This document shows positions 47,345 through 59,428 of a DNA stretch of 64,000 nucleotides, one piece after another. The notes below the pieces were generated by a model, which was not told where the DNA came from, did not search any database, and was given only the letters and a program-made list of their open reading frames with translations. How positions within the stretch are numbered: position 1 is the stretch's first letter; each line of letters starts with the position of its first letter. A program made the translations under genes and the position numbers. The DNA comes from Bacilli bacterium (GTDB lineage: Bacteria > Bacillota_I > Bacilli_A > Izemoplasmatales > Hujiaoplasmataceae). Location: the NCBI GenBank assembly GCA_018399755.1, contig JAGYOE010000002.1, forward strand, positions 6,531 to 70,530, given 5' to 3'.

Positions 47345-47872
47345 ATGTCAGTATATGATTATAAAATTAAAAATATTAAAGGTAAAAATGTTAGTCTCAA
47401 AGACTATAAAGGCAAGGTATTATTAATTGTCAATACAGCAACAAAATGTGGATATACACCTCAATATGAAGGCCTTCAAAACCTATATGATAAATTTAAA
47501 GATGACGGTTTTGAAATTATTGACTTGCCTTGTAATCAATTTATGTCCCAAGCTCCAGGATCTAACGAAGAAATCGCTAATTTTTGTCAGTTAAACTATG
47601 ACACTACATTTGAAACCTTTGCTAAAGTTAAGGTTAATGGGAAAGATGCAATTGACCTTTACAAATATCTTAAAGAAGAAAAACCATACGATGAAATTCC
47701 TGGCGAAGAAGGTCATAAACCTAAGATCTTAAACAAACTTTCAGGTTCAAGAATCAAATGGAATTTTACGAAATTTCTTATCGATAAAGAAGGCAATGTT
47801 TATGGAAGATATGGTTCAAGAGTTGAACCTGAAAAATTAGAAAAACCAATTAAAAAATTGCTAAAAAAATAA
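47345..47872 (+). CDS. Glutathione peroxidase family protein (Cys type; start ATG 47345)
   Basis: VNTATKCGYTPQY, PCNQF..Q.PG, IKWNFTKFL. Confidence 0.95.
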   Translation: MSVYDYKIKNIKGKNVSLKDYKGKVLLIVNTATKCGYTPQYEGLQNLYDKFKDDGFEIIDLPCNQFMSQAPGSNEEIANFCQLNYDTTFETFAKVKVNGKDAIDLYKYLKEEKPYDEIPGEEGHKPKILNKLSGSRIKWNFTKFLIDKEGNVYGRYGSRVEPEKLEKPIKKLLKK

Positions 47873-47902
47873 GACTTAGTTTTTAAACTAAGCCTTTTTT
47901 TT
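47870..47902. terminator. Bidirectional terminator
   Basis: CTTAGTTT..AAACTAAG hairpin followed by a T tract, between convergent genes. Confidence 0.6.
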
Positions 47903-48821
47903 ATAGTAAAAATTTTATCTTTTCGCCTTTGAGATATCTTGTTAAATTGTCTTTAGTTAATTCATATAGTCTTTTTTTCATATATTCACTAGAAGATGCA
48001 TTATGTGGAGTTATAAAAACATTGTCTAATTCCCATAATTTTGAAGTTTTCTCTAAAGGCTCAGGATCTGTAACATCTAGAGCTGCGCCTATAATTTTTC
48101 TTTCTTCTAGTATTTTAACTAAATCTGATTGAACAACAACTTCTCCTCTAGCAATATTAATTAGTAAAGAACTTTCTTTCATTAGTGATAATTTTTCATA
48201 ATCAAACAAATATTTTGTATCTTTATTTAAAGGCATAGCTAGAATTAAATAATCAGCTTGTTTAATAACCTTTTTTAGTCCTAATTCACCTGTGTAAATA
48301 TTGTCAAAATATTTTACTGGTTTATTCTTGCGTCTATGCCCATTGATTTTTTTCGGAGAGAAACTTTGAAGTCTTTTAGCAACTTCTTTACCAATAGACC
48401 CTGTACCGATAATTCCTATAGTAGAATTATAAATTTCTTTTTCTTCATGAATTGGTTGCCAAACTTTCTTTGCTTTATTATTTACAAAAGCTAGGGTATC
48501 TCTATTAAAATAAAGCATTTTTGAAATAACGTCTTCAGCGATTGTAATTGAAAAAATATCCCTGGCATTACTAATCATAATCCCTTTTTCTTTATATCCA
48601 TTAACATCAACATTATCAAAACCTGCCATATATAATTGAATCCATTTTAAATCTTTGTATTCTTTAATATTAGCTTTTGTTAATATCGAATTTAAACCAA
48701 AGAAAACTTCAATATCTTTAGATTTTGAAAAATCATCTGTAAAATCAATACTTGGAAACTGTTTTTTTAATTTTAAATAATCCTTTTCTTCTATTAATCT
48801 TGTATCTACAAAAACCTTCAT
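47901..48821 (-). CDS. D-isomer-specific 2-hydroxyacid dehydrogenase (start ATG 48821)
   Basis: GTGSIG, NIARG, DVTDPEP, ITPHNA. Confidence 0.9.
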   Translation of the reverse strand: MKVFVDTRLIEEKDYLKLKKQFPSIDFTDDFSKSKDIEVFFGLNSILTKANIKEYKDLKWIQLYMAGFDNVDVNGYKEKGIMISNARDIFSITIAEDVISKMLYFNRDTLAFVNNKAKKVWQPIHEEKEIYNSTIGIIGTGSIGKEVAKRLQSFSPKKINGHRRKNKPVKYFDNIYTGELGLKKVIKQADYLILAMPLNKDTKYLFDYEKLSLMKESSLLINIARGEVVVQSDLVKILEERKIIGAALDVTDPEPLEKTSKLWELDNVFITPHNASSSEYMKKRLYELTKDNLTRYLKGEKIKFLL

Positions 48822-48837
48822 AATTAACCCCTTAATT

Positions 48838-49632
48838 TTATCCGTATAGTTTTCTAACAATATATAAAACTAATCTTTCAGATAAAATTTTGTTTAAAAA
48901 TCTAATCATTTTATATGAAAAACCAACGGTTTTAGTAATTGGTAGTGTTTTTCTTTTTAATAATTTATGGATTGATTTAGCAATAACTAATGGTTCCATT
49001 CCCTTAGTTTCATCTAACTCCATTTTTTTTATTGATTTTTCTACGCGATTTTTGTATAGGTCATTTTCTACAACTAATGGTTTTTTTCTATTCTTAGTAA
49101 AATCAGTTTTAATATCTCCTGGTAATAAAGACATTACTTGAATATTAAATGGTTTTAATTCAACTCTTAAAGCTTTTGTAAACGCATCAATACTAGCTTT
49201 AGTCATAGAATAAAAACCCTGAAATGGTAAAGCAATTTCTGAGGCAATTGAACTCATATTTATTATTTTAGCGTCTTCTGATTTTCTTAATAATTTTAAA
49301 ACCGCTTTTGTTAGTAAAAAATGCCCAAAAACATTTACATTAAAAATTAATTTAACATCTTCTAATGGCGTATTTTCTATAGAACCGGAAATGCCAATTC
49401 CAGCAGAATTTATTAAATAGTCTACTTTTTCATATTTTTCTTCTATAATTTTAGTTGTTTTTAAAATCGAAGATTCATTAGTTATATCACATAATATATA
49501 ATTGAAATCATAACTTTCCTTAGGATAAGATCTTGAAAGACCGATAACAGTATAATCTTTTTTATATAGATAGCTTGCGGTTGCAAAGCCAATACCTGAA
49601 GAAGCTCCTGATATTAAGACAACTTTATTCAT
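48838..49632 (-). CDS. Short-chain dehydrogenase/reductase, candidate 3-ketosphinganine reductase
   Basis: SGASSGIG, NSAGIG, catalytic YSMTK, PGDIKTDF; overlaps the SPT-like gene by 8 bp. Confidence 0.85.
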   Translation of the reverse strand: MNKVVLISGASSGIGFATASYLYKKDYTVIGLSRSYPKESYDFNYILCDITNESSILKTTKIIEEKYEKVDYLINSAGIGISGSIENTPLEDVKLIFNVNVFGHFLLTKAVLKLLRKSEDAKIINMSSIASEIALPFQGFYSMTKASIDAFTKALRVELKPFNIQVMSLLPGDIKTDFTKNRKKPLVVENDLYKNRVEKSIKKMELDETKGMEPLVIAKSIHKLLKRKTLPITKTVGFSYKMIRFLNKILSERLVLYIVRKLYG

Positions 49633-50845
49633 TATCTTTCAAAACCTTAAGTAATGCTTCATCATCCTCAGGTAAGTTATTAAGTACTCCTACAATTATA
49701 TCAATAGCTTCATCCATTAACTCATATGTATGAGTTGATGTATAACTTGTTCTTATTAAGCACTCTCCTTCAGGAGCCGCAGGTGGTAAAACAGGATTAA
49801 CATAAACTCCTTTTTCATATAATAATTTACATGCAACAAGTGTTCTTAAAAATGAGTAGGTGTAAATAGGAATAATCGGAACAATTGAATGATCAATTAT
49901 TTCTAGACCTTTATTTTTTAATCCTTTTCTAACATATTCAGCTATTTCTAATAAGCGTTTTGGTCTTTCTGGTTCTTTTATTAAAATCCTTAAGGCTTCT
50001 AAGGCTGTCATAGCATTTGCTGGGGTAATTGCAGCACAGAATATAAATGGTCGAGAATTATGTTTAACAAATTCTACCACTTCATTACTAGCTGCCATAT
50101 AACCACCTAAACTAGCAAGTGATTTAGAGAAAGTTCCCATAATAATATCAACTTCATCTTCTAAATCAAAATATTCAGCTGTACCACGGCCATTTTTTCC
50201 CAATACACCAAAACCATGAGCATCATCAACCATAACTCTTGCTTCATATTTTTTTGCGAGTTTTACAATTTCAGGAAGTTTAGCAATATCACCAGTCATG
50301 GAAAATACCCCATCAGTTACGATTAACTTTCCTTGCTTAGGATCAGCATTTTTCAGTTTTGTTTCTAAATCTTCCATATCTTGATGTTTATATCTAACTA
50401 ATTTACCAAAAGATAATCTTGCACCATCATAAATACTTGCATGGTTTTCTCTATCACAAAAAATTAGATCATTTCTTCCTGCAATTGCAGAAATTATGCC
50501 TAAATTAGTTTGGTATCCCGTAGAAAAAGTTAAACAAGCCTCTTTATGTAAGAAATTTGCAAGTTCTCCTTCAAGTTCTTCATGAACTGTTAAGGTCCCA
50601 TTTAAAAATCTAGATCCAGAAACTCCAGAACCAAATTGTTTAATTGCTTTCACACCAGCATCTATAATTCTTGGATCTCCAGTTAAACCTAAATAATTAT
50701 TAGACCCAATCATTATTCGTCTTTTGCCTTCCATAACAACTTCAATATCTTGTTTTGTTTCAAGTGCATGAAAGTATGGGTAAACTCCTAGATCCTTATA
50801 CTTTTTTGTTAAATCGTAATTGTAACATTTCTTAAATAAATCCAT
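49625..50845 (-). CDS. Alpha-oxoamine synthase, serine palmitoyltransferase-like
   Basis: GVYPYF, GSNNYLGL, SRFLNGT, NHAS, DDAHG, PLP lysine in MGTFSKSL. Confidence 0.75.
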   Translation of the reverse strand: MDLFKKCYNYDLTKKYKDLGVYPYFHALETKQDIEVVMEGKRRIMIGSNNYLGLTGDPRIIDAGVKAIKQFGSGVSGSRFLNGTLTVHEELEGELANFLHKEACLTFSTGYQTNLGIISAIAGRNDLIFCDRENHASIYDGARLSFGKLVRYKHQDMEDLETKLKNADPKQGKLIVTDGVFSMTGDIAKLPEIVKLAKKYEARVMVDDAHGFGVLGKNGRGTAEYFDLEDEVDIIMGTFSKSLASLGGYMAASNEVVEFVKHNSRPFIFCAAITPANAMTALEALRILIKEPERPKRLLEIAEYVRKGLKNKGLEIIDHSIVPIIPIYTYSFLRTLVACKLLYEKGVYVNPVLPPAAPEGECLIRTSYTSTHTYELMDEAIDIIVGVLNNLPEDDEALLKVLKDNE

Positions 50846-50922: not shown

Positions 50923-53136
50923 CTATTCTGTTCTTAATGCTACTACTGGATCTTTCTTAGCTGCCATTCTAGCTGGAATTAATCCCGCAACAAACGCTAA
51001 GAAGATTGATATCAGAACTAACGAGATAATATGAATAGGTGCTAATTTAGCTATATTAGGAATATCTGATAAATTTTCTAGAATTATATTTATCGGTATA
51101 ATTAACAATAAAGCAATTACTATTCCAGTTAATCCAGCACTAAATCCGATAATAATATTTTCTGTATTAAATACGCGTGAAACATCTTTCTTTCTTGCGC
51201 CTAGTGCTCTTAATACTCCGATTTCTTTAGTCCTTTCAATAACTGATACATAGGTAATAATCGATATCATAATTGAAGATACAACTAAACTAATTGAAGC
51301 AAAAGCAATTAAGACAATTGATATAGCATCAATTATTCCACTTGATATCGAAATAAACACTTCTGATTGATCCGTATAATAAACGCTTGATTCTTCATCG
51401 AGACCAATATTATATGAATCCAAATACTCAATTAATTTTTCTTTATCATCAAAATTATTTGGATATAAGGAAATTGTTTTTATTCCTCCAATTTCACTAG
51501 GATGAGTATCTTGTAAATACTGTGATACTTCTGGAGTATAAACTAGACCGTTTCTCATAAATAATGAAACTTTGCTATCAGGTAAAGTTCTAGTTATTCC
51601 AGAAATTCTTACTGTATAAACATCAGATAAATCACTTTCCGCATTTACTTCACCAACGTATAATTGAAATTCTTTACCTATGATATCTGCATAATTAATT
51701 TGCGTGTTTTCATCAATGTTATCACTGTCATAACCTAAAGCTTCTAAAATATCTTTGGAGAGTTGGTTATAACTACTTATTGATAATAATACTTCAATTT
51801 CCTTATCATCAAAATTTTGAACAGGACTATCGCCAAATACTATTTCATAGTTTTCTTCATATATTTCACCCTCAGGCATTAGATGAAAATTAATTAAATT
51901 TGGGTTAAAGAAAGGTGGCATAGCCCCGCCTGAAGAGTCAATCGTTTCAACATAAACTACTTCTTGAGTGTCGTCAATATCAGCTAGTAAAGCCATATTC
52001 ATTTTGTGTTCAAAAGAATATCCTGATAGTGTATCTTCTCCTTCGCCTTCAAGATAATCATTAATAAATCTTTCATAATCAACATCAATTGTGTTTTCTA
52101 TCATATTATCTTCAGCAATATCTTTTTCAGGAGTAATGTAATCTATATCTGGATGACTTTCTAAATCATCTCTAGAACTCTGCTGATTCATAATACCTAA
52201 AATATCAAAAGAAGCTTCTTCGATTAATACTGGATAGCTTGATAAAGTATCTTTTTCAAATTTATCAATTTCTTGGTCCATACCATTTGATAAAGATAAA
52301 ATTAAAGCAATACCAATAATACCAATACTACCTGCAAAAGCAGTGAGAATTGTTCTTCCTAATTTGGTTTTTATATTATTAATTGAAGAAACAAAAGCTG
52401 TAGCATAAGACATAGACGTTTTCTTTAAATTAAGTGTTCCCGTTTCGTCTAAATCTTTTTTTACAGGATTAGAGTCATCTATAACACTACCATCTTTTAA
52501 TTTAATAACACGATTTGCATATTTATATGCCATATCCGAATCATGAGTTACCATAATAACTAGTTTTTCTTTAGCTATTTCTTTAATTAAATCTAAAATT
52601 TGTGTTCCAGTTTCAGTATCCAAAGAACCTGTAGGTTCATCAGCTAAAATAATATCAGGATTATTAGCTAAAGCTCTAGCTACGGCTACTCTTTGTTGTT
52701 GCCCGCCAGATAATTGATTAGGTTTTTTATGAATATGATCTTTTAATCCAACTCTTTCTAATACTTCAAGTGCTCTAGTTTTTTTATCTTTTGCACTAGC
52801 CCCACTTAAAGACAAACCCATTTCTACATTATGCAATACACTTAAATGAGAAATTAAATTATGGTTTTGAAAAACAAAACCAATGGAATTATTACGGTAC
52901 ATATCCCATTCTCTATCAGAAAATTTCTTAGTTGATTTACCGTTGATAATTAAATCTCCATCATCAGCTCTATCTAATCCACCAATAACATTTAATAATG
53001 TTGTTTTCCCACAGCCTGACGGTCCTAAAACAGAAACAAATTCTGTTTGTCTAAATTCTAAACTCACCTTATCAAGTGCATCTTGATAAAACTCTCCTAT
53101 TGAATACGATTTACTTACATTAGTTAATTTTAACAT
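50923..53136 (-). CDS. Fused ABC transporter ATP-binding/permease (MacB/FtsX-like)
   Basis: GPSGCGKTT, LSGGQQQR, LADEPTG; FtsX-type permease SVIERTKEIGVLRALGA, A.KDPV.ALR. Confidence 0.92.
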   Translation of the reverse strand: MLKLTNVSKSYSIGEFYQDALDKVSLEFRQTEFVSVLGPSGCGKTTLLNVIGGLDRADDGDLIINGKSTKKFSDREWDMYRNNSIGFVFQNHNLISHLSVLHNVEMGLSLSGASAKDKKTRALEVLERVGLKDHIHKKPNQLSGGQQQRVAVARALANNPDIILADEPTGSLDTETGTQILDLIKEIAKEKLVIMVTHDSDMAYKYANRVIKLKDGSVIDDSNPVKKDLDETGTLNLKKTSMSYATAFVSSINNIKTKLGRTILTAFAGSIGIIGIALILSLSNGMDQEIDKFEKDTLSSYPVLIEEASFDILGIMNQQSSRDDLESHPDIDYITPEKDIAEDNMIENTIDVDYERFINDYLEGEGEDTLSGYSFEHKMNMALLADIDDTQEVVYVETIDSSGGAMPPFFNPNLINFHLMPEGEIYEENYEIVFGDSPVQNFDDKEIEVLLSISSYNQLSKDILEALGYDSDNIDENTQINYADIIGKEFQLYVGEVNAESDLSDVYTVRISGITRTLPDSKVSLFMRNGLVYTPEVSQYLQDTHPSEIGGIKTISLYPNNFDDKEKLIEYLDSYNIGLDEESSVYYTDQSEVFISISSGIIDAISIVLIAFASISLVVSSIMISIITYVSVIERTKEIGVLRALGARKKDVSRVFNTENIIIGFSAGLTGIVIALLLIIPINIILENLSDIPNIAKLAPIHIISLVLISIFLAFVAGLIPARMAAKKDPVVALRTE

Positions 53137-53138
53137 TT

Positions 53139-53747
53139 TTAGCTCCTCTCATAGCCTGTTTTTAATATATTTAAAAGGTCTTGATATATTGCTCGAGATT
53201 GATTCATTGGATAATTTTTAATCATTGTTTCAATTAAAATATCAGTTAATATGGTCTGAGCTATTCTTAAAAGACGCTTTATAAATTCATCACTATTATC
53301 TATAAATTGGGATTTATCAATATATTCTATCACCAAATTATTTTCTTGATTTGATTCAAACACTTTTTTATTTGTATTATTAACAATATTGTTGTGAAAA
53401 AATAAAGTTACATGTTTAATAAAGTTTCTGTATTTATCATTATCTAATAGATCATAAACTTCATCATGAACAATTAACATCATTTCTACAAATTCTCGTT
53501 TAGATTCAAAAAATTTATGTTTAATCTTCATTTCTAAAGGAGATTTTATTAGTTTAATTAAATAATCTAATAAATCATACTTATCTTTAAAATAGGTATA
53601 AAAACTACCTCGAGATATATTTGCAGACTTAACAATTTTATTAATAGAAGCTTTATCAATATTACAAGTTGAAAATTCATCTACTGCCGCTGCAATTATT
53701 TTATTTCTTTTATCCTCAGATAAATTTAAAAATGTAAACGTGGGCAT
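53139..53747 (-). CDS. TetR/AcrR family transcriptional regulator
   Basis: ASINKIV..ANISRGSFY.YF.DK.DL HTH. Confidence 0.92.
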   Translation of the reverse strand: MPTFTFLNLSEDKRNKIIAAAVDEFSTCNIDKASINKIVKSANISRGSFYTYFKDKYDLLDYLIKLIKSPLEMKIKHKFFESKREFVEMMLIVHDEVYDLLDNDKYRNFIKHVTLFFHNNIVNNTNKKVFESNQENNLVIEYIDKSQFIDNSDEFIKRLLRIAQTILTDILIETMIKNYPMNQSRAIYQDLLNILKTGYERS

Positions 53748-53777: not shown

Positions 53778-53806
53778 AGTTTATATGACAGGGTGTCAAA
53801 TTGCAA
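53778..53806 (-). promoter_or_regulatory. Promoter with probable TetR operator
   Basis: TTGCAA-17 nt-TAAACT on the minus strand; the spacer holds the inverted repeat TGACA-GGG-TGTCA (53786-53798). Confidence 0.7.
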
Positions 53807-53885: not shown

Positions 53886-54530
53886 CTATTTCTCTTGTGC
53901 TTCAGCAAATATTTTTAATCCTTTAGTAGTTAATTCGTGTTTAACCATTTTTTTTAAAACTTTATAAGGTATTGTTGCTATTTCAGCACCAGCTTTCATA
54001 GCTTGTTCTACATGGTTTATATGCCTTATTGAAGCAGCAATAATCTTGGTTTTAAAATTATAAGTTTTAAACATTTCTTTAATATCTTTGACTAGTTTAA
54101 ATCCAGCATCATCTTTTTCTGTTAGATCATCAATTCTTCCCATAAACGGTGAAACATAAGTTGCGCCAGCACTAGAGGCCATTAAAGCTTGGGACATTGA
54201 AAAAACTAAAGTAACGTTAGTTTTGATGTTTAATTTGGTTAATTCTTTAACAGCTTTAACCCCTTCAATTGTCATTGGAATTTTAATCACAATATTTTTG
54301 TGTATTTTAGCATAGGTTTTTGCTTCTTCAACCATAGCTTCTGCGTTGCTTTCTTTTACTTCAGCGCTAATAGGTCCATCTACTAGATTAACAATTTTAT
54401 CTATCGCTTCAGTTAAAGTAATTCCTGATTTTGCAATTAAACTTGGGTTAGTAGTAACACCACTGATAATTCCCCAAGAACTTGCTTCTTCAATTTCTTT
54501 AATAATAGCAGTATCTGCAAATATTTTCAT
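53886..54530 (-). CDS. tal: Transaldolase (short TalC/FSA family)
   Basis: [27 protein letters not shown]; SAEV (Glu) and SPF (Phe) indicate transaldolase rather than FSA. Confidence 0.88.
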
Positions 54531-54551
54531 AATTTCTCCTTCTTAAACTTT

Positions 54552-55184
54552 TTATAATTTTACTTTTTCTAGTAACATCTCTTTTAAATCGTTAGCTTCA
54601 TCTTTTATATCAGCTACTACATCTTGATATTCTTTTACAAGCTGAATATCACTTAATCCTGTTAAATTAATTAAAACATTCATAGCTGCACCTTCAATTG
54701 CAGAATGTAACATCAATACAGCAACTCCTTGATCTGAAATAGTATTTTTATTTGATTTTTCCATAATACTATCTACCATTCTAAGCGATTGTATCGCTAA
54801 ATTGCATACTTCCATTGGAACTCGAATAGTTTCCATAGTTGCTTTTTTAATGGCAAGTCGCCTTTTTCTGCGATCTTCTTCACTTTCTTTTGACATTTTA
54901 AAAGCATCCATTAACGAGTTAAAAACTTTAGTGTCTTCGTCAATATAATCAACAAACTTATCCTTATTAACACGGTATTTTTCAATAGTATCAATAAATT
55001 CTTTTTGTTTTTCTGCTTTCATTTCTTTAAATTTTTTCTTTTTAAAAGTTAATTCGCCTGCCATAACCATTAGTCCAACTCCGTTAGCTGCGGCTAATGC
55101 ACTTACACTTCCGCCACCAGGTGCTGGAGAATTTGAAGCCAGTTTTTCAAGAAAATCTTTTACTTTCATATCAACTAATTTCAT
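54552..55184 (-). CDS. Formiminotetrahydrofolate cyclodeaminase
   Basis: PAPGGGSVSAL, D...FN..M.AFK, N.ISD, A..NV.INL. Confidence 0.9.
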   Translation of the reverse strand: MKLVDMKVKDFLEKLASNSPAPGGGSVSALAAANGVGLMVMAGELTFKKKKFKEMKAEKQKEFIDTIEKYRVNKDKFVDYIDEDTKVFNSLMDAFKMSKESEEDRRKRRLAIKKATMETIRVPMEVCNLAIQSLRMVDSIMEKSNKNTISDQGVAVLMLHSAIEGAAMNVLINLTGLSDIQLVKEYQDVVADIKDEANDLKEMLLEKVKL

Positions 55185-55186
55185 AA

Positions 55187-56446
55187 TTATTCACCTACTA
55201 TCCTTCTTTTTTCTATAACTAATTTTCCATTTTTAAATACACTATAAGTATGATTAATTCCATAGTGATAGATAAAGTAATCTAAATTCTTACAATCTAA
55301 AAGTAATAAATCTGCATTTTTACCTACTTCTATACTACCAACTTTTCCGGAAATATCCAAGCTATATGCCGGATTAATCGTTGCAGCAGTTAAAATTTCA
55401 TTTGGTAACATTCTTAATTTATTACCAGAGATTTGTAAAGTTAATTGATAATTTTCAGATGGTGTTGAACCCGGATTATAGTCACTTGATATAGCAAGTG
55501 CTACACCTGAATCAATCAGTTTTCTAGCTGGAGCATAATCTTTATTTAAAAAGAATGAAGTTGAAGGCAATAGATTAGCAATTGTATTTGATTCTTTTAA
55601 TAATTTAATATCACTATCATTAATTGCCATTAAATGATCAATTGTTTTAGCTTTTAAATCGATACTAACTTTTGTGCCACCAATTGATTTTATTTCATCA
55701 GTATGTACTCTTAACTTAAAGTTTAAATCTTTAGCTGCTTTTAGAATCTTTTCTGTTTCTTTAGCATTAAATACTCCAACCTCACAGAAAACATCAACAT
55801 AATCAGCTAAATCTTCTTGTTTTATTATTTGTAAATCTTTTATAACCTGATTAATATATTCATCCCGTTTTTCTTTATATTCTTTTGGTAAAGCGTGTGC
55901 GCCTAAATATGTAGTATATATATCAATCGGGTGATTTTCATTAAGTTTTTTTGCAACTTTTAATTGCTTTATTTCAGTTTCTAAATCAAGTCCATATCCT
56001 GATTTCACTTCAAGTGAAGTAACCCCATATAGTAACATCTCATTTAAAGATTTTTTTGCTTGGTTATATAATTCTTCAAAACTAGCTTTTTTAGTTGCCT
56101 CTACAGTACTTAATATTCCTCCTCCTGATGCAAGAATATCTAAGTAAGGAACACCAGCTATTTTTTTACTAAATTCATGTTCTCTAGAACCACCAAACAC
56201 TAGATGAGTATGTGAATCTACTAATCCAGGAATAATAATTTTTTGTTTAGCATCATAAAGTTTTGTATTATTGTTCTTTAATTGAGAAAAATCTCCGGTT
56301 GCTATTTTAATGATTTTTTCATTTTCAATAACTATATAGGGATTATTTATAACTTCAATATTTTTCATATTTTCTCCTTTAACAGGAGGTTTATTTATTG
56401 AAGTATATATTGCTTTTATATTATGAATAATTAATTTATTTTTCAT
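55187..56446 (-). CDS. hutI: Imidazolonepropionase
   Basis: PGLVDSHTH, GGGILSTV, KSGYGL, GAHA, DVFCE, SSDYNPG. Confidence 0.97.
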   Translation of the reverse strand: MKNKLIIHNIKAIYTSINKPPVKGENMKNIEVINNPYIVIENEKIIKIATGDFSQLKNNNTKLYDAKQKIIIPGLVDSHTHLVFGGSREHEFSKKIAGVPYLDILASGGGILSTVEATKKASFEELYNQAKKSLNEMLLYGVTSLEVKSGYGLDLETEIKQLKVAKKLNENHPIDIYTTYLGAHALPKEYKEKRDEYINQVIKDLQIIKQEDLADYVDVFCEVGVFNAKETEKILKAAKDLNFKLRVHTDEIKSIGGTKVSIDLKAKTIDHLMAINDSDIKLLKESNTIANLLPSTSFFLNKDYAPARKLIDSGVALAISSDYNPGSTPSENYQLTLQISGNKLRMLPNEILTAATINPAYSLDISGKVGSIEVGKNADLLLLDCKNLDYFIYHYGINHTYSVFKNGKLVIEKRRIVGE

Positions 56447-56453
56447 AAGCTAC

Positions 56454-57416
56454 CTACAAGAAATAATCTATTATTTTTTCAGCATCAAAATCTCTAAGTT
56501 TTAAATACTTTTTGCATCCTTTAACAACCTCAGTAATTGACATTTCTTTGTCAAATTCTAAATTATTAACGCCGTAATAATATCTTAAAGATCTAATTAA
56601 CGCATCTTTAGGGATCAAACCAACTATTTCAGCTGAAGGAACGTTATAATGATATCTTTTAGCTTCCATTTTTACAGTTTCAAATATTCGATAAATTGGA
56701 TTTTTTTTATAATTTAAGATATTCATTGTAACTTGAGTATGACCGCGTTTTTCTAAATATACCGGACCAGCTTGAACATATTGAAAACCACCACTACTTT
56801 GTCTAATAGCTCTAGCAAATCTATTGGTGATTTTTTCATCATCTGTATCAATATCTATATTATAAGCGATTAAAAAATCTCTTGCGCCAATCGCTAAACT
56901 TCCAAAAGTTTCATGACGTTTGCTTGGTCCAAAATCAGGTTTCCAATTAGGATCTTTAATTTTCTCTTTCATTCCTTCAAATTCACCTTTACGAATATTA
57001 GGCAATTTCTCTCTATCAGCTTTTTTAGCTGCTTCTGCATATAAAAAGCACGGTATTGAAAACTTATCTGCTATTTTTTCAGCTAAGATTTCACTGTATT
57101 TAACACATTCTTTCATCTTAATATTACTTATAGGAATAAAAGGAATTACATCAATTGCGCCCATTCTTGCGTGTTCACCAGAATGATTATTTAAATCAAT
57201 TTCTTGTAAACACACTTCGGTTAAATCCATTAAAGCATCAAGCATTTTATCTGGGTTGCCAATTAAAGTTACTACTGTTCGATTATAATCACTATCGGCT
57301 TCATAGTTTATTAGTTTTATATCTTTGTGTTTATCAAATACTTTAATAATTCTTTGAATTTTTTCTTTATCTCTTCCTTCAGAAAAATTTGGTACACATT
57401 CTACAATTTTAGGCAT
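56454..57416 (-). CDS. ftcD: Glutamate formiminotransferase
   Basis: ECVPNFSEGR, NRTV.T, H.RMGA.DV.PF, GAR..LIAYN, EIVGL.P. Confidence 0.95.
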   Translation of the reverse strand: MPKIVECVPNFSEGRDKEKIQRIIKVFDKHKDIKLINYEADSDYNRTVVTLIGNPDKMLDALMDLTEVCLQEIDLNNHSGEHARMGAIDVIPFIPISNIKMKECVKYSEILAEKIADKFSIPCFLYAEAAKKADREKLPNIRKGEFEGMKEKIKDPNWKPDFGPSKRHETFGSLAIGARDFLIAYNIDIDTDDEKITNRFARAIRQSSGGFQYVQAGPVYLEKRGHTQVTMNILNYKKNPIYRIFETVKMEAKRYHYNVPSAEIVGLIPKDALIRSLRYYYGVNNLEFDKEMSITEVVKGCKKYLKLRDFDAEKIIDYFL

Positions 57417-59428
57417 TATTTTCCTCCCTTTTGAAATTTATTTTCTACTAGTTTATCAATAAGGTCTTCATCGGTAATATTAGGCAAAGTAATAAATGAA
57501 TCATTATCTAAACTATTATATTCTTCGCTAGTTGAAATTGCATTTATATTTCTTGCCCAAGCTCTTCTTGATACGCCTGTCATTACATCATGTAACATAG
57601 CAGTTTTTAATATTTCATCTTTTTCATAACTTCCATCTAAAACCATTCCATAACCACCGTTAATTACTTTTCCAATACCAACTCCACCGCCATTATGTAA
57701 AGTAACTAAACTCATTCCTCTAGCACTATTGCCTAGAGCAACTTGAGTAGCCATATCAGCCATAATATTTGAACCATCTTTAATATTTGATGTTTCCCTA
57801 AATGGAGAATCAGTTCCGCCAGTATCATGATGGTCTCTACCAAGCATCACTGGACCGATTTCTTTATTTCTTACCATCTCATTAAATTTTAAAGCAATTT
57901 TCAATCTACCATAAGCATCTTGATAAAGTATTCTTGCTAGAGTACCAACAACTAATTTGTTTTTCTTAGCATCTTTTATCCAGTTATAATTATCTAAATC
58001 TTGGAATCTTCGATTAGGATCAATACAATCCATTGCGGCTTTATCGGTTTTATCTAAATCAATTTGTTTATGTGACAAACAAACCCATCTAAATGGACCA
58101 TAACCATAATCAAATAATACTGGTCCCATGATATCTTCTACATAACTTGGCCAAATAAAACCATCAAGATCATTTTCACCATTCTTGCAAATTTCCTTTA
58201 TACCTGAATCATAGATTGCTTTCATAAAAGAATTTCCGTAATCAAAAAAGTAGGTACCTTGTTTAACCATGCCTTTAATTGCTTTAAAATGTCTTTTTAA
58301 AGTTTCATCTACAATTTTTTTAAATTTTTTAGGATTGTTTTGTAATAATTCCGTTCTTTCTTCAAAACTAATCCCTACAGGACAATATCCGCCATCATAA
58401 ACAGCGTGACAACTTGTTTGATCACTTAATAAATCAATTTTAATTCTATTATTCAGTGAATATTCTAATAAATCCACAATATTACCATGATAAGCAATTG
58501 CCATTGTTCTTTTCGCTTTCATTGCTTCTTTAGCAAACCTAAAAGCTTTTTCTTCACTATCAGTTATTTTATTAACCCAGCCTTGGTTTAAACGAGTTTC
58601 AATTCTTGAATAATCAACTTCCGCAACAATTCCAACTCCACCAGCAATCTCTATAGCCTTGCCTTGAGCTCCACTCATTCCTCCTAAGCCACTGGAAACG
58701 AAAAGTTTACCTGTCAAATCCTTATCATCAGGAATGCCTAGTTTCATTCTTCCCGCATTTAATAGTGTAGAATAAGTTCCATGTACAATTCCTTGTGGGC
58801 CAATATACATCCAACCACCAGCAGTCATTTGACCATAATTAGCAACTCCTAAAGATGATGCCCGGTTAAAACTTTTTAGATTATCGAATTCTCCTATCAT
58901 TAATCCATTAGTGATTATTACTCTTGGAGAACTTTTACTAGATTTAAATAAGCCTAAAGGATGACCAGACATAATAACTAAAGTTTGGTTATCGTTTAAT
59001 TCTTGTAAATATTTTTTTACTAAATTATATTGCATCCAATTTTGAAATACTGATCCAGTTTCCCCATAAGTAACTAACTCATAAGGATAAAGAGCAATGT
59101 CATTATCAAGATTATTATCAATCATTACTTGAAAAGCTTTACCTTCTATGGTTTTTGCTTGATACTCGTCAATTGGTTTGCCATAAATTTTTGTTTTTGG
59201 ATAAAACCTATAACCATAGATTTTTCCTCTAGTTAATAACTCATCTAAAAATTCAGGCGCTAGTTTATCATGCCATTTTTTAGGAATATACCTAAGTGCA
59301 TTTTTAAGAGCTAATTTAGTTTCTGATTTTGTAAGTGAAAAATCTCTTTTAGGAGCTCTTCTTATTCCTTTTTTAAATTTGATAGGTTCTGGCAATTCTT
59401 TAAATATTTCGTCAATTGTAAATTCCAT
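57416..59428 (-). CDS. hutU: Urocanate hydratase (long, 670-aa form)
   Basis: YGQMTAGG, GPQGIVHGT, GLGGMSGAQ, DQTSCH, GPFRW, GRDHHD, HNGGGVG. Confidence 0.98.
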   Translation of the reverse strand: MEFTIDEIFKELPEPIKFKKGIRRAPKRDFSLTKSETKLALKNALRYIPKKWHDKLAPEFLDELLTRGKIYGYRFYPKTKIYGKPIDEYQAKTIEGKAFQVMIDNNLDNDIALYPYELVTYGETGSVFQNWMQYNLVKKYLQELNDNQTLVIMSGHPLGLFKSSKSSPRVIITNGLMIGEFDNLKSFNRASSLGVANYGQMTAGGWMYIGPQGIVHGTYSTLLNAGRMKLGIPDDKDLTGKLFVSSGLGGMSGAQGKAIEIAGGVGIVAEVDYSRIETRLNQGWVNKITDSEEKAFRFAKEAMKAKRTMAIAYHGNIVDLLEYSLNNRIKIDLLSDQTSCHAVYDGGYCPVGISFEERTELLQNNPKKFKKIVDETLKRHFKAIKGMVKQGTYFFDYGNSFMKAIYDSGIKEICKNGENDLDGFIWPSYVEDIMGPVLFDYGYGPFRWVCLSHKQIDLDKTDKAAMDCIDPNRRFQDLDNYNWIKDAKKNKLVVGTLARILYQDAYGRLKIALKFNEMVRNKEIGPVMLGRDHHDTGGTDSPFRETSNIKDGSNIMADMATQVALGNSARGMSLVTLHNGGGVGIGKVINGGYGMVLDGSYEKDEILKTAMLHDVMTGVSRRAWARNINAISTSEEYNSLDNDSFITLPNITDEDLIDKLVENKFQKGGK

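Follow-up and report, generated by a model that had tools for sequence, protein, structure and literature searches.

A candidate serine palmitoyltransferase-reductase gene pair in an Izemoplasmatales genome and its relatives across the Bacillota

The gene cluster and its host

We have analysed a stretch of 64,000 nucleotides (called here the window) from one contig of the genome of a wall-less marine bacterium of the Izemoplasmatales. An earlier note on this DNA had pointed out in it three tightly linked genes on the minus strand as a possible route to sphingolipids, compounds with sphinganine as their backbone, beginning with an enzyme like serine palmitoyltransferase (SPT). The first gene codes for an alpha-oxoamine synthase, the second for a short-chain dehydrogenase/reductase (SDR) and the third for a 2-hydroxyacid dehydrogenase. 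The open reading frames (ORFs), all of them open under translation table 11, are the following.

49625..50845, minus strand: SPT-like alpha-oxoamine synthase (gene 1), 406 aa, with K241 as the lysine that holds pyridoxal phosphate (PLP)
48838..49632, minus strand: KdsR-like classical SDR (gene 2), 264 aa; candidate NADPH-dependent 3-ketosphinganine reductase
47901..48821, minus strand: D-2-hydroxyacid dehydrogenase of the glyoxylate/hydroxypyruvate-reductase type (gene 3), 306 aa counted from an ATG

The compact arrangement that had been described was confirmed. The stop of gene 1 and the start of gene 2 overlap by 8 bp (ATGAATAA), and 16 bp separate the stop of gene 2 from the ATG of gene 3, with an AAGGGG Shine-Dalgarno site inside the gap. 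The ORF of gene 3 can be extended to a TTG and then reaches 48860; the proteins of its relatives have 306 aa.

Homologues close to gene 1 (77-98% identity) belong to Izemoplasmatales, the one of Hujiaoplasma nucleasis being 83% identical. The source genome has 1.23 Mb in 76 contigs and is ~80% complete, and its GTDB genus code also covers genomes that match H. nucleasis, with complete assemblies measuring 1.8 and 1.6 Mb under the code. The NCBI taxonomy places Hujiaoplasma in the Mollicutes, Candidatus Izemoplasmatales. Since the organism belongs to Izemoplasmatales and carries the Hujiaoplasma genus code, the description of the host as Mollicutes-like was correct.

Relationships of the synthase and of the reductase linked to it

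Comparisons were made with 121 Izemoplasmatales genomes (the order sample) and with 399 genomes of the class (the class sample). Family membership was judged against the curated equivalog cut-offs of NCBIfam, which are 640 bits for SPT, 400 for KdsR, 460 for Kbl and 426 for BioF. The product of gene 1 contains the Pfam domain Aminotran_1_2 (185.9 bits), and its best NCBIfam model was NF047600, the CFB-type SPT, with 514.8 bits. The next three families, the beta-proteobacterial SPT (387.3 bits), the BioF/Kbl subfamily (385.4) and Kbl (381.9), trailed by about 127-133 bits, followed by BioF (368.4). Among solved structures the best match was the SPT of Sphingobacterium multivorum (406.8 bits), and then came the Sphingomonas SPT (about 280), Kbl (263.6) and a cysteate fatty acyltransferase (CFAT, 236.8). 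The protein is also 49% identical to an NCBI-named SPT of Marinoscillum. Over the order sample the scores against the SPT model were bimodal, lying either between 498 and 534 or between 362 and 395 bits, with nothing in the gap.

The motifs GVYPYF, GSNNYLGL, SRFLNGT and GTFSKS, quoted in the earlier note, are all present in the translation of gene 1. In the alignment, gene 1 and the Bacteroidota SPT have in common GTFSKSLASLGG, YPYFH, GSRFLNGT and FSTG(Y/F)Q, and the lysine motif reads GTLSKA in the Kbl-like paralogue of the same genome, GTLGKA in Kbl of E. coli and TFGKG in BioF of E. coli. The active-site residues of the S. multivorum enzyme (SmSPT) have been described, including a network around serine formed by Asn52, Gly80, Ser81 and Ser243 (PMC10196870). 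Gene 1 keeps the named residues as N49, G77-S78, F80, H135, S182, D207, H210, T238, S240 and K241; of these, K241, H135, D207, H210, S182 and T238 align to K244, H138, D210, H213, S185 and T241 of SmSPT. Tyr27 and Phe83 of the SmSPT acyl wall are conserved as well, and gene 1 keeps Y24/F25 there. Two conservative changes were found at positions making main-chain contacts (M271 of SmSPT to I268 and F114 to Y111). At four positions where CFAT differs, Ser81, Ser185, Ser243 and Ala274 in SmSPT numbering, gene 1 has the residue of the serine-using enzyme. These matches support the assignment and are not proof of serine specificity, because pocket residues alone do not set it (PMC13692747).

Quick IQ-TREE searches, with reference sequences other than proteobacterial SPT and CFAT, gave a consistent picture. 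The protein from the window, the NCBI-named SPT and the Bacteroidota SPT group fell together in a 62-row SPT-like clade (SH-aLRT 99). Outside this clade were E. coli Kbl together with the paralogue from the same genome, E. coli BioF and four BioF-scoring representatives. The Bacillota sequences formed a single 43-row clade (support 99), with Izemoplasmatales and Acholeplasmatales in one group of 18 rows (support 98) and Clostridia in a neighbouring one. The phylogeny that the earlier note had asked for thus places gene 1 with SPT and apart from Kbl and BioF, as far as the references included allow.

The paralogue just mentioned is a second alpha-oxoamine synthase on another contig (C2), which scores 562 bits with the BioF/Kbl subfamily, 497 with Kbl and 431 with BioF, all above the cut-offs. 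A gene for a Tdh-type zinc-dependent alcohol dehydrogenase overlaps it, forming a tdh-kbl pair at C2:28030-30300 (L005 1495-3781, minus strand). The presence of this canonical pair on a different contig indicates that gene 1 is a distinct paralogue. A Pfam scan of the neighbourhood of gene 1 found no bio genes and no threonine dehydrogenase, in agreement with what had been noticed before.

Gene 2 is a classical SDR, as had been proposed. It has the Pfam domain adh_short (146 bits), and the cofactor and catalytic motifs G9xxxG13xG15, N75SAG, S127/S128 and Y141xxxK145 are in place, together with R34, an arginine after the second strand of the kind typical of NADPH users. Out of 215 NCBIfam families the best was NF049977, KdsR, with 212.8 bits, the next giving 178.5. 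KdsR was also the best family for five SDRs adjacent to gene 1 homologues in other lineages (224-267 bits). The comparison with the PDB gave no solved structure matching gene 2 at E <= 1e-25.

The association of gene 2 with gene 1 is much closer than chance would give. The SPT-like gene was present in 63 of the 121 genomes of the order sample (48/56 in family code f1, 15/55 in f2 and 0/10 in f3), and an orthologue of the SDR lay immediately beside it in 62 of these 63 carriers. Four genomes had the SDR with no SPT-like gene, and in each of them the SDR lay no more than 850 bases from the contig start, so that the place of the SPT-like gene would be beyond the assembled part. Of 19 loci drawn from further genera of the order and from the remaining families in the class sample, 16 had the pair adjacent, and in two families the order of the two genes was reversed. 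Species-representative genomes contained at least 598 relatives of gene 1, and the best 80 of them (59-78% identity) were taken as named loci. An SDR homologue was found at no more than 260 nt from the SPT-like gene in 52 of the 79 named loci over which proximity was counted. The conservation of the neighbourhood, suggested earlier as a check, therefore holds for the synthase and the SDR. When all ORFs were clustered against all, first over 23 loci and then over the 80 named ones, the SDR was the sole conserved neighbour; the other recurrent neighbour families turned out to be ORFs running antisense within the genes for SPT or SDR and were rejected.

Two single cases deserve mention. The only carrier of the order sample in which the SDR was not detected (G090, C34:383-2915) has ~450 nt between the SPT-like and the 2-hydroxyacid dehydrogenase genes, and as this is too short for an SDR, a deletion or an assembly fault is suggested. 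An apparent fusion of SPT and SDR in G046, a 670-aa open frame, was ruled out, as there are two ORFs overlapping in different frames.

A probable two-gene cassette and the alternatives

The family scores, the active-site residues, the phylogeny, the separate tdh-kbl pair and the near-perfect co-occurrence and adjacency all point in the same direction. We consider it likely that genes 1 and 2 are a two-gene cassette of SPT and 3-ketosphinganine reductase (KDSR) making sphinganine-type bases, a function that we infer from the sequence and the gene context. In the first step the PLP enzyme would condense L-serine with a long-chain acyl thioester, either acyl-CoA or acyl-ACP (acyl carrier protein), to give 3-ketosphinganine. 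In the second, the translationally coupled NADPH-type SDR would reduce the 3-keto group to yield sphinganine. The order of the steps would be that of Bacteroides, SPT first and then KDSR, and any later N-acylation or addition of a head group would need further enzymes. We also infer the substrates (serine, the chain length, CoA or ACP as carrier), the product and the fate of the product. A role of such lipids in stiffening the membrane, as put forward in the earlier note, would be a conjecture. The source genome contains a cluster for type II fatty acid synthesis, ACP, PlsX, a FadD-like ligase and serine hydroxymethyltransferase, and a supply of acyl donors and serine is plausible.

The comparison with known systems indicates a variant of a known pathway, whose enzyme families have already been described. 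Like the Bacteroidota SPT (S. multivorum, PDB 3a2b/8guh), the product of gene 1 is a soluble, single-domain protein of ~400 aa that has the fold of alpha-oxoamine synthases. The lysine motif GTFSKSLASLGG and the named contacts to PLP and serine are kept, and this type of enzyme is the best match by family and by structure. Unlike it, gene 1 belongs to a separate Bacillota clade of Clostridia and Mollicutes and scores below the cut-off. With Kbl and BioF it shares the superfamily and the catalytic Lys, His and Asp set, but differs in the lysine, N-terminal and acyl-wall motifs. In Bacteroides the SPT locus (BT_0870) and the reductase locus have numbers about 100 apart, whereas gene 1 is translationally coupled to the reductase. 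The 3-ketosphinganine reductase of Bacteroides thetaiotaomicron is BT_0972 (KdsR) (PMC9278070). Gene 2 shares with this protein (NF049977) the classical SDR type, a length of about 265 aa, the GxxxGxG and YxxxK motifs and the implied order of steps, but it scores below the cut-off and forms an operon with the SPT-like gene. The ceramide pathway of the Caulobacter type (Spt, bCerS, CerR and a dedicated ACP with its ACP synthetase) also starts by an SPT-family condensation. Unlike in that pathway, no GNAT of the bCerS type was found here, no dedicated ACP or acyl-ACP synthetase lies beside gene 1, and the reductase is closer in type to KdsR, whose step precedes N-acylation (no separate search was made for homologues of CerR).

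Several observations weigh against the cassette. Gene 1, at 514.8 bits, is below the SPT cut-off of 640, which the Bacteroides thetaiotaomicron control passed and none of the genomes in the order and class samples did. Gene 2, at 212.8 bits, is likewise below the 400 bits of KdsR, and the lead of KdsR over generic SDR subfamilies is modest, about 12 bits in relatives of the Haploplasma axanthum type, 34 for gene 2 itself and up to about 42. In 23 of the 79 named loci there is no SDR within 3 kb despite there being room for one. Swaps of pocket residues do not convert the amino-acid specificity of these enzymes, according to the CFAT study (PMC13692747). Sphingolipids go unmentioned in the two papers on cultured Izemoplasmatales, those describing Hujiaoplasma nucleasis and Xianfuyuplasma. 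Finally, the search for a ceramide synthase was negative. The bCerS-type GNAT (PF13480/PF04339) had no match in the source genome, which is 80% complete. Five further genomes gave weak matches to small GNATs and one unlinked match of 25 bits (in G005). For G017 and G029, which are complete and share the genus code, and for H. axanthum (G367), bCerS matches were at E 0.01-0.08 only, to GNATs of ~155 aa. The earlier remark that no ceramide synthase was visible thus extends from the window to its own genome, to two complete genomes of the genus and to H. axanthum. As no convincing bCerS-type enzyme was found in these genomes, a full sphingolipid pathway is not shown. What stands of the proposal of an SPT with a coupled reductase in a mollicute is the evidence of scores, residues, tree and adjacency; what qualifies it is that both enzymes fall short of the equivalog cut-offs.

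Some of the same observations would fit a synthase using another amino acid (alanine, glycine, threonine or other) with a fatty acyl thioester, the SDR reducing the ketone to give a 1-deoxy-type or amino-alcohol lipid or a signal. SPTs take alanine and glycine at low efficiency and first-shell residues do not reveal specificity (PMC10196870, PMC13692747). The score of gene 1 under the SPT equivalog cut-off, and the lack of a ceramide synthase or a conserved head-group enzyme with the pair, would also be expected. The contacts of SmSPT with the serine side chain and its water network are, however, all conserved in gene 1 (N49, G77, S78 and S240), and H. axanthum, which reportedly makes lipids of the ceramide type, has the pair as well. 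We regard this alternative as unlikely.

The involvement of gene 3 was a further part of the original proposal, in which all three genes would form one pathway, with the third enzyme supplying sphingolipid synthesis with serine, by way of hydroxypyruvate, or with 2-hydroxy precursors. Gene 3 has the Pfam domains 2-Hacid_dh_C (PF02826, 163.8 bits) and 2-Hacid_dh (PF00389, 48.2 bits). It scores 208.4 bits with NF041369, below the cut-off, and reaches no NCBIfam equivalog cut-off. Its nearest PDB entries are the glyoxylate reductases 5aov and 2dbq, so that its closest solved relatives are of the glyoxylate/hydroxypyruvate type that such a role would call for. The Shine-Dalgarno site in the 16-bp gap, and a terminator-like site directly after gene 3 with none before it, also speak for a common function. 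The distribution of the gene is against it. Gene 3 adjoins the pair in about 29 genomes, confined to the genus codes g1, g2 and g4 of one family. In other carriers its homologue is tens of kilobases away, on another contig or absent, and genomes with no SPT-like gene have it too (G007, G013, G043 and G024). It was found in none of the flanks of the 80 named loci and in none of the loci of other families. We think a pathway of three genes improbable, and the claim for the third gene was not borne out; its distribution suggests that gene 3 is probably a co-transcribed, lineage-specific passenger and not a conserved member of the pathway.

A cysteate fatty acyltransferase, making bases of the capnine or sulfonolipid type, would belong to the same superfamily, would also produce long-chain bases and does match gene 1 in structure searches (236.8 bits). 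The match to serine-using SPT is far stronger (406.8 bits), gene 1 has the serine-SPT residues where CFAT differs, and the identity of CFAT to serine-SPT is only about 30% (PMC13692747) against 49% between gene 1 and the named SPT, all of which makes this reading very improbable. Even less credit is due to a housekeeping Kbl or BioF beside an unrelated SDR: the public annotation of relatives is '8-amino-7-oxononanoate synthase' and the two models still give 368-382 bits, but gene 1 is below both cut-offs (Kbl 381.9 vs 460, BioF 368.4 vs 426), both are exceeded by a separate paralogue, that of the tdh-kbl pair, the tree parts the two paralogues, there are no bio genes nearby, and the adjacency of the SDR holds in 62/63 carriers and survives the swap of gene order.

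Transcription signals, flanking genes and distribution in the Bacillota

Returning to the cassette of genes 1 and 2, we examined the surrounding signals and genes, which are these.

50911-50884, minus strand: promoter-like site TTTAAA-16-TGnTATAAT, found by consensus scan and sequence, with a putative function
50892-50866, minus strand: hairpin with T-run upstream of gene 1, perfect 11-bp arms, with an AGGAGG site and the ATG just downstream
47871..47896, minus strand: terminator-like hairpin with T-run directly 3' of the gene 3 stop, found by consensus scan and sequence
50923-53136, minus strand: fused ABC ATPase/FtsX permease (Pfam), upstream neighbour
53139-53747, minus strand: TetR regulator (Pfam), upstream neighbour

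The consensus scan gave no terminator-like site between the three genes on the minus strand. With a promoter-like site upstream, a hairpin at the end and none between, genes 1 to 3 look like one transcription unit, as judged from such scans alone. The TATAAT -10 element of the putative promoter of gene 1 sits within the 5' arm of the hairpin, and a hairpin containing TATAAT appears at the matching place in two relatives (L001 7950-7990; L003 7935-7985), in one of them with a differing sequence. This hairpin could end the upstream TetR-ABC unit, transcripts started within it escaping termination, or else it could act as an operator. TetR and ABC-FtsX are probably a unit separate from gene 1. 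They were considered as members of the pathway and found unsupported, given the hairpin between the ABC gene and gene 1 and a synteny limited to close relatives. The ABC-FtsX genes upstream of the pair in H. axanthum are not orthologous to those of the window.

Ahead of the TetR gene there is a palindrome, TGACA-CCC-TGTCA (53786-53798 of the window, minus strand), which overlaps a TTGACA hexamer and might serve the TetR/ABC-FtsX unit as an operator for autoregulation. Further upstream (53886-59428 of the window), synteny with L003 indicates transaldolase-family and histidine-utilisation genes (urocanase, formiminotransferase, imidazolonepropionase and cyclodeaminase), unrelated to the lipid genes.

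The flanks of relatives showed some other genes, limited to certain lineages, which we take as no more than hints. A PAP2-family membrane protein is encoded directly upstream of the pair on the same strand in two loci of Acholeplasmataceae (L021 4878-5909, with a 2-nt gap, and L026 8190-9188). It gives weak PAP2_3 and PAP2_C signals, domains that are also found in synthases of sphingomyelin and inositol phosphorylceramide, a hint that in this genus it may be an enzyme of head-group addition. The PAP2 homologue of the source genome was rejected as a pathway marker, being present in 102 of the 121 genomes of the order regardless of the SPT-like gene. In H. axanthum (L025 2206-10688) genes with links to lipids flank the pair: two fused ABC-ATPase/FtsX genes lie upstream, and genes for an FNT-like membrane protein and for a lipid kinase of the DAGK_cat family downstream. 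The kinase, whose family includes sphingosine and ceramide kinases, was seen beside the pair in H. axanthum only, and the FNT-like protein in four loci. DegV genes occur in the flanks of several loci and, in L033, directly ahead of the SPT-like gene. Outside the main groups, the nearest relative (P0121, 56% identity) has SPT and SDR followed by a 151-aa GNAT on the same strand, in a contig with phosphotransferase system genes; this small GNAT is a possible N-acylating enzyme.

The SPT-like gene extends well beyond the order. In the class sample it was matched in 81 of the 399 genomes, among them members of the family codes f7 (10/12), f15 (21/30), f12 (11/25), f10 (4/40), f19 (3/23) and f5 (2/8), with no SPT-like match in 21 other family codes. 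Members of f15 were identified as Acholeplasmataceae, and the pair is found there in Haploplasma axanthum (formerly placed in Acholeplasma), whose genome is complete. Its SPT-like protein, annotated as BioF, is 64% identical to gene 1, and its SDR, 45% identical, overlaps by 4 bp. This is presumably the one mollicute with chemically described sphingolipids. Plackett, Smith and Mayberry in 1970 and Mayberry et al. in 1973 are said to have found in it ceramide-type phospholipids with amide-linked 3-hydroxy fatty acids.

Most of the best 80 relatives came from metagenome-assembled genomes of Clostridia from gut, rumen and digesters (59-68% identity, loci L059-L135), belonging to Christensenellales, Oscillospiraceae, Lachnospiraceae and Ruminococcaceae. 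The best 80 also hold Acholeplasmataceae, Peloplasma aerotolerans and Candidatus Coproplasma. One match, from a contig of 3 kb that had been binned as Kiritimatiellae, may be a binning error. As Clostridia and Mollicutes are joined in one Bacillota clade, the cassette is a feature of Bacillota and not special to Mollicutes. The restriction to Mollicutes implied in the earlier note was too narrow, the clade being common in the Clostridia genomes.

The detection of bacterial sphingolipids has been largely limited to Bacteroidota and certain Alphaproteobacteria, according to a 2023 review (PMC10191378). A study of the Black Sea predicted Spt-like proteins in 40 phyla, and its main text and two of its supplementary files do not mention Firmicutes, Bacilli or Tenericutes. 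Our literature search found no paper joining Acholeplasma with 'bacterial sphingolipids' or Izemoplasma with SPT, and none that usefully joined Acholeplasma with SPT. What appears to be new here is a distinct Bacillota clade below the cut-offs, organised as a coupled two-gene cassette with no known ceramide synthase alongside, in hosts unrecognised as producers. A wider proposal would be that a Bacillota-wide SPT-KDSR cassette provides sphingoid bases in Mollicutes that live free and without a wall (Izemoplasmatales and Acholeplasmatales) and in many Clostridia of gut, rumen and digesters, that it is the long-missing genetic basis of the sphingolipids of Acholeplasma axanthum and that the ceramide synthase is unrelated to the eukaryotic and bCerS types. 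Taken as a whole, we find this proposal reasonable although somewhat short of probable.

The pair is widespread in relatives of Acholeplasma and in uncultured Clostridia, groups that are not usually counted among the sphingolipid producers. If the reading is right, it would assign genes to a lipid chemistry reportedly described in one mollicute about 50 years ago, and it would point to an undiscovered bacterial ceramide synthase. Many uncultured Clostridia of gut and rumen may then make sphingoid bases, which would bear on host studies that credit Bacteroidota alone.

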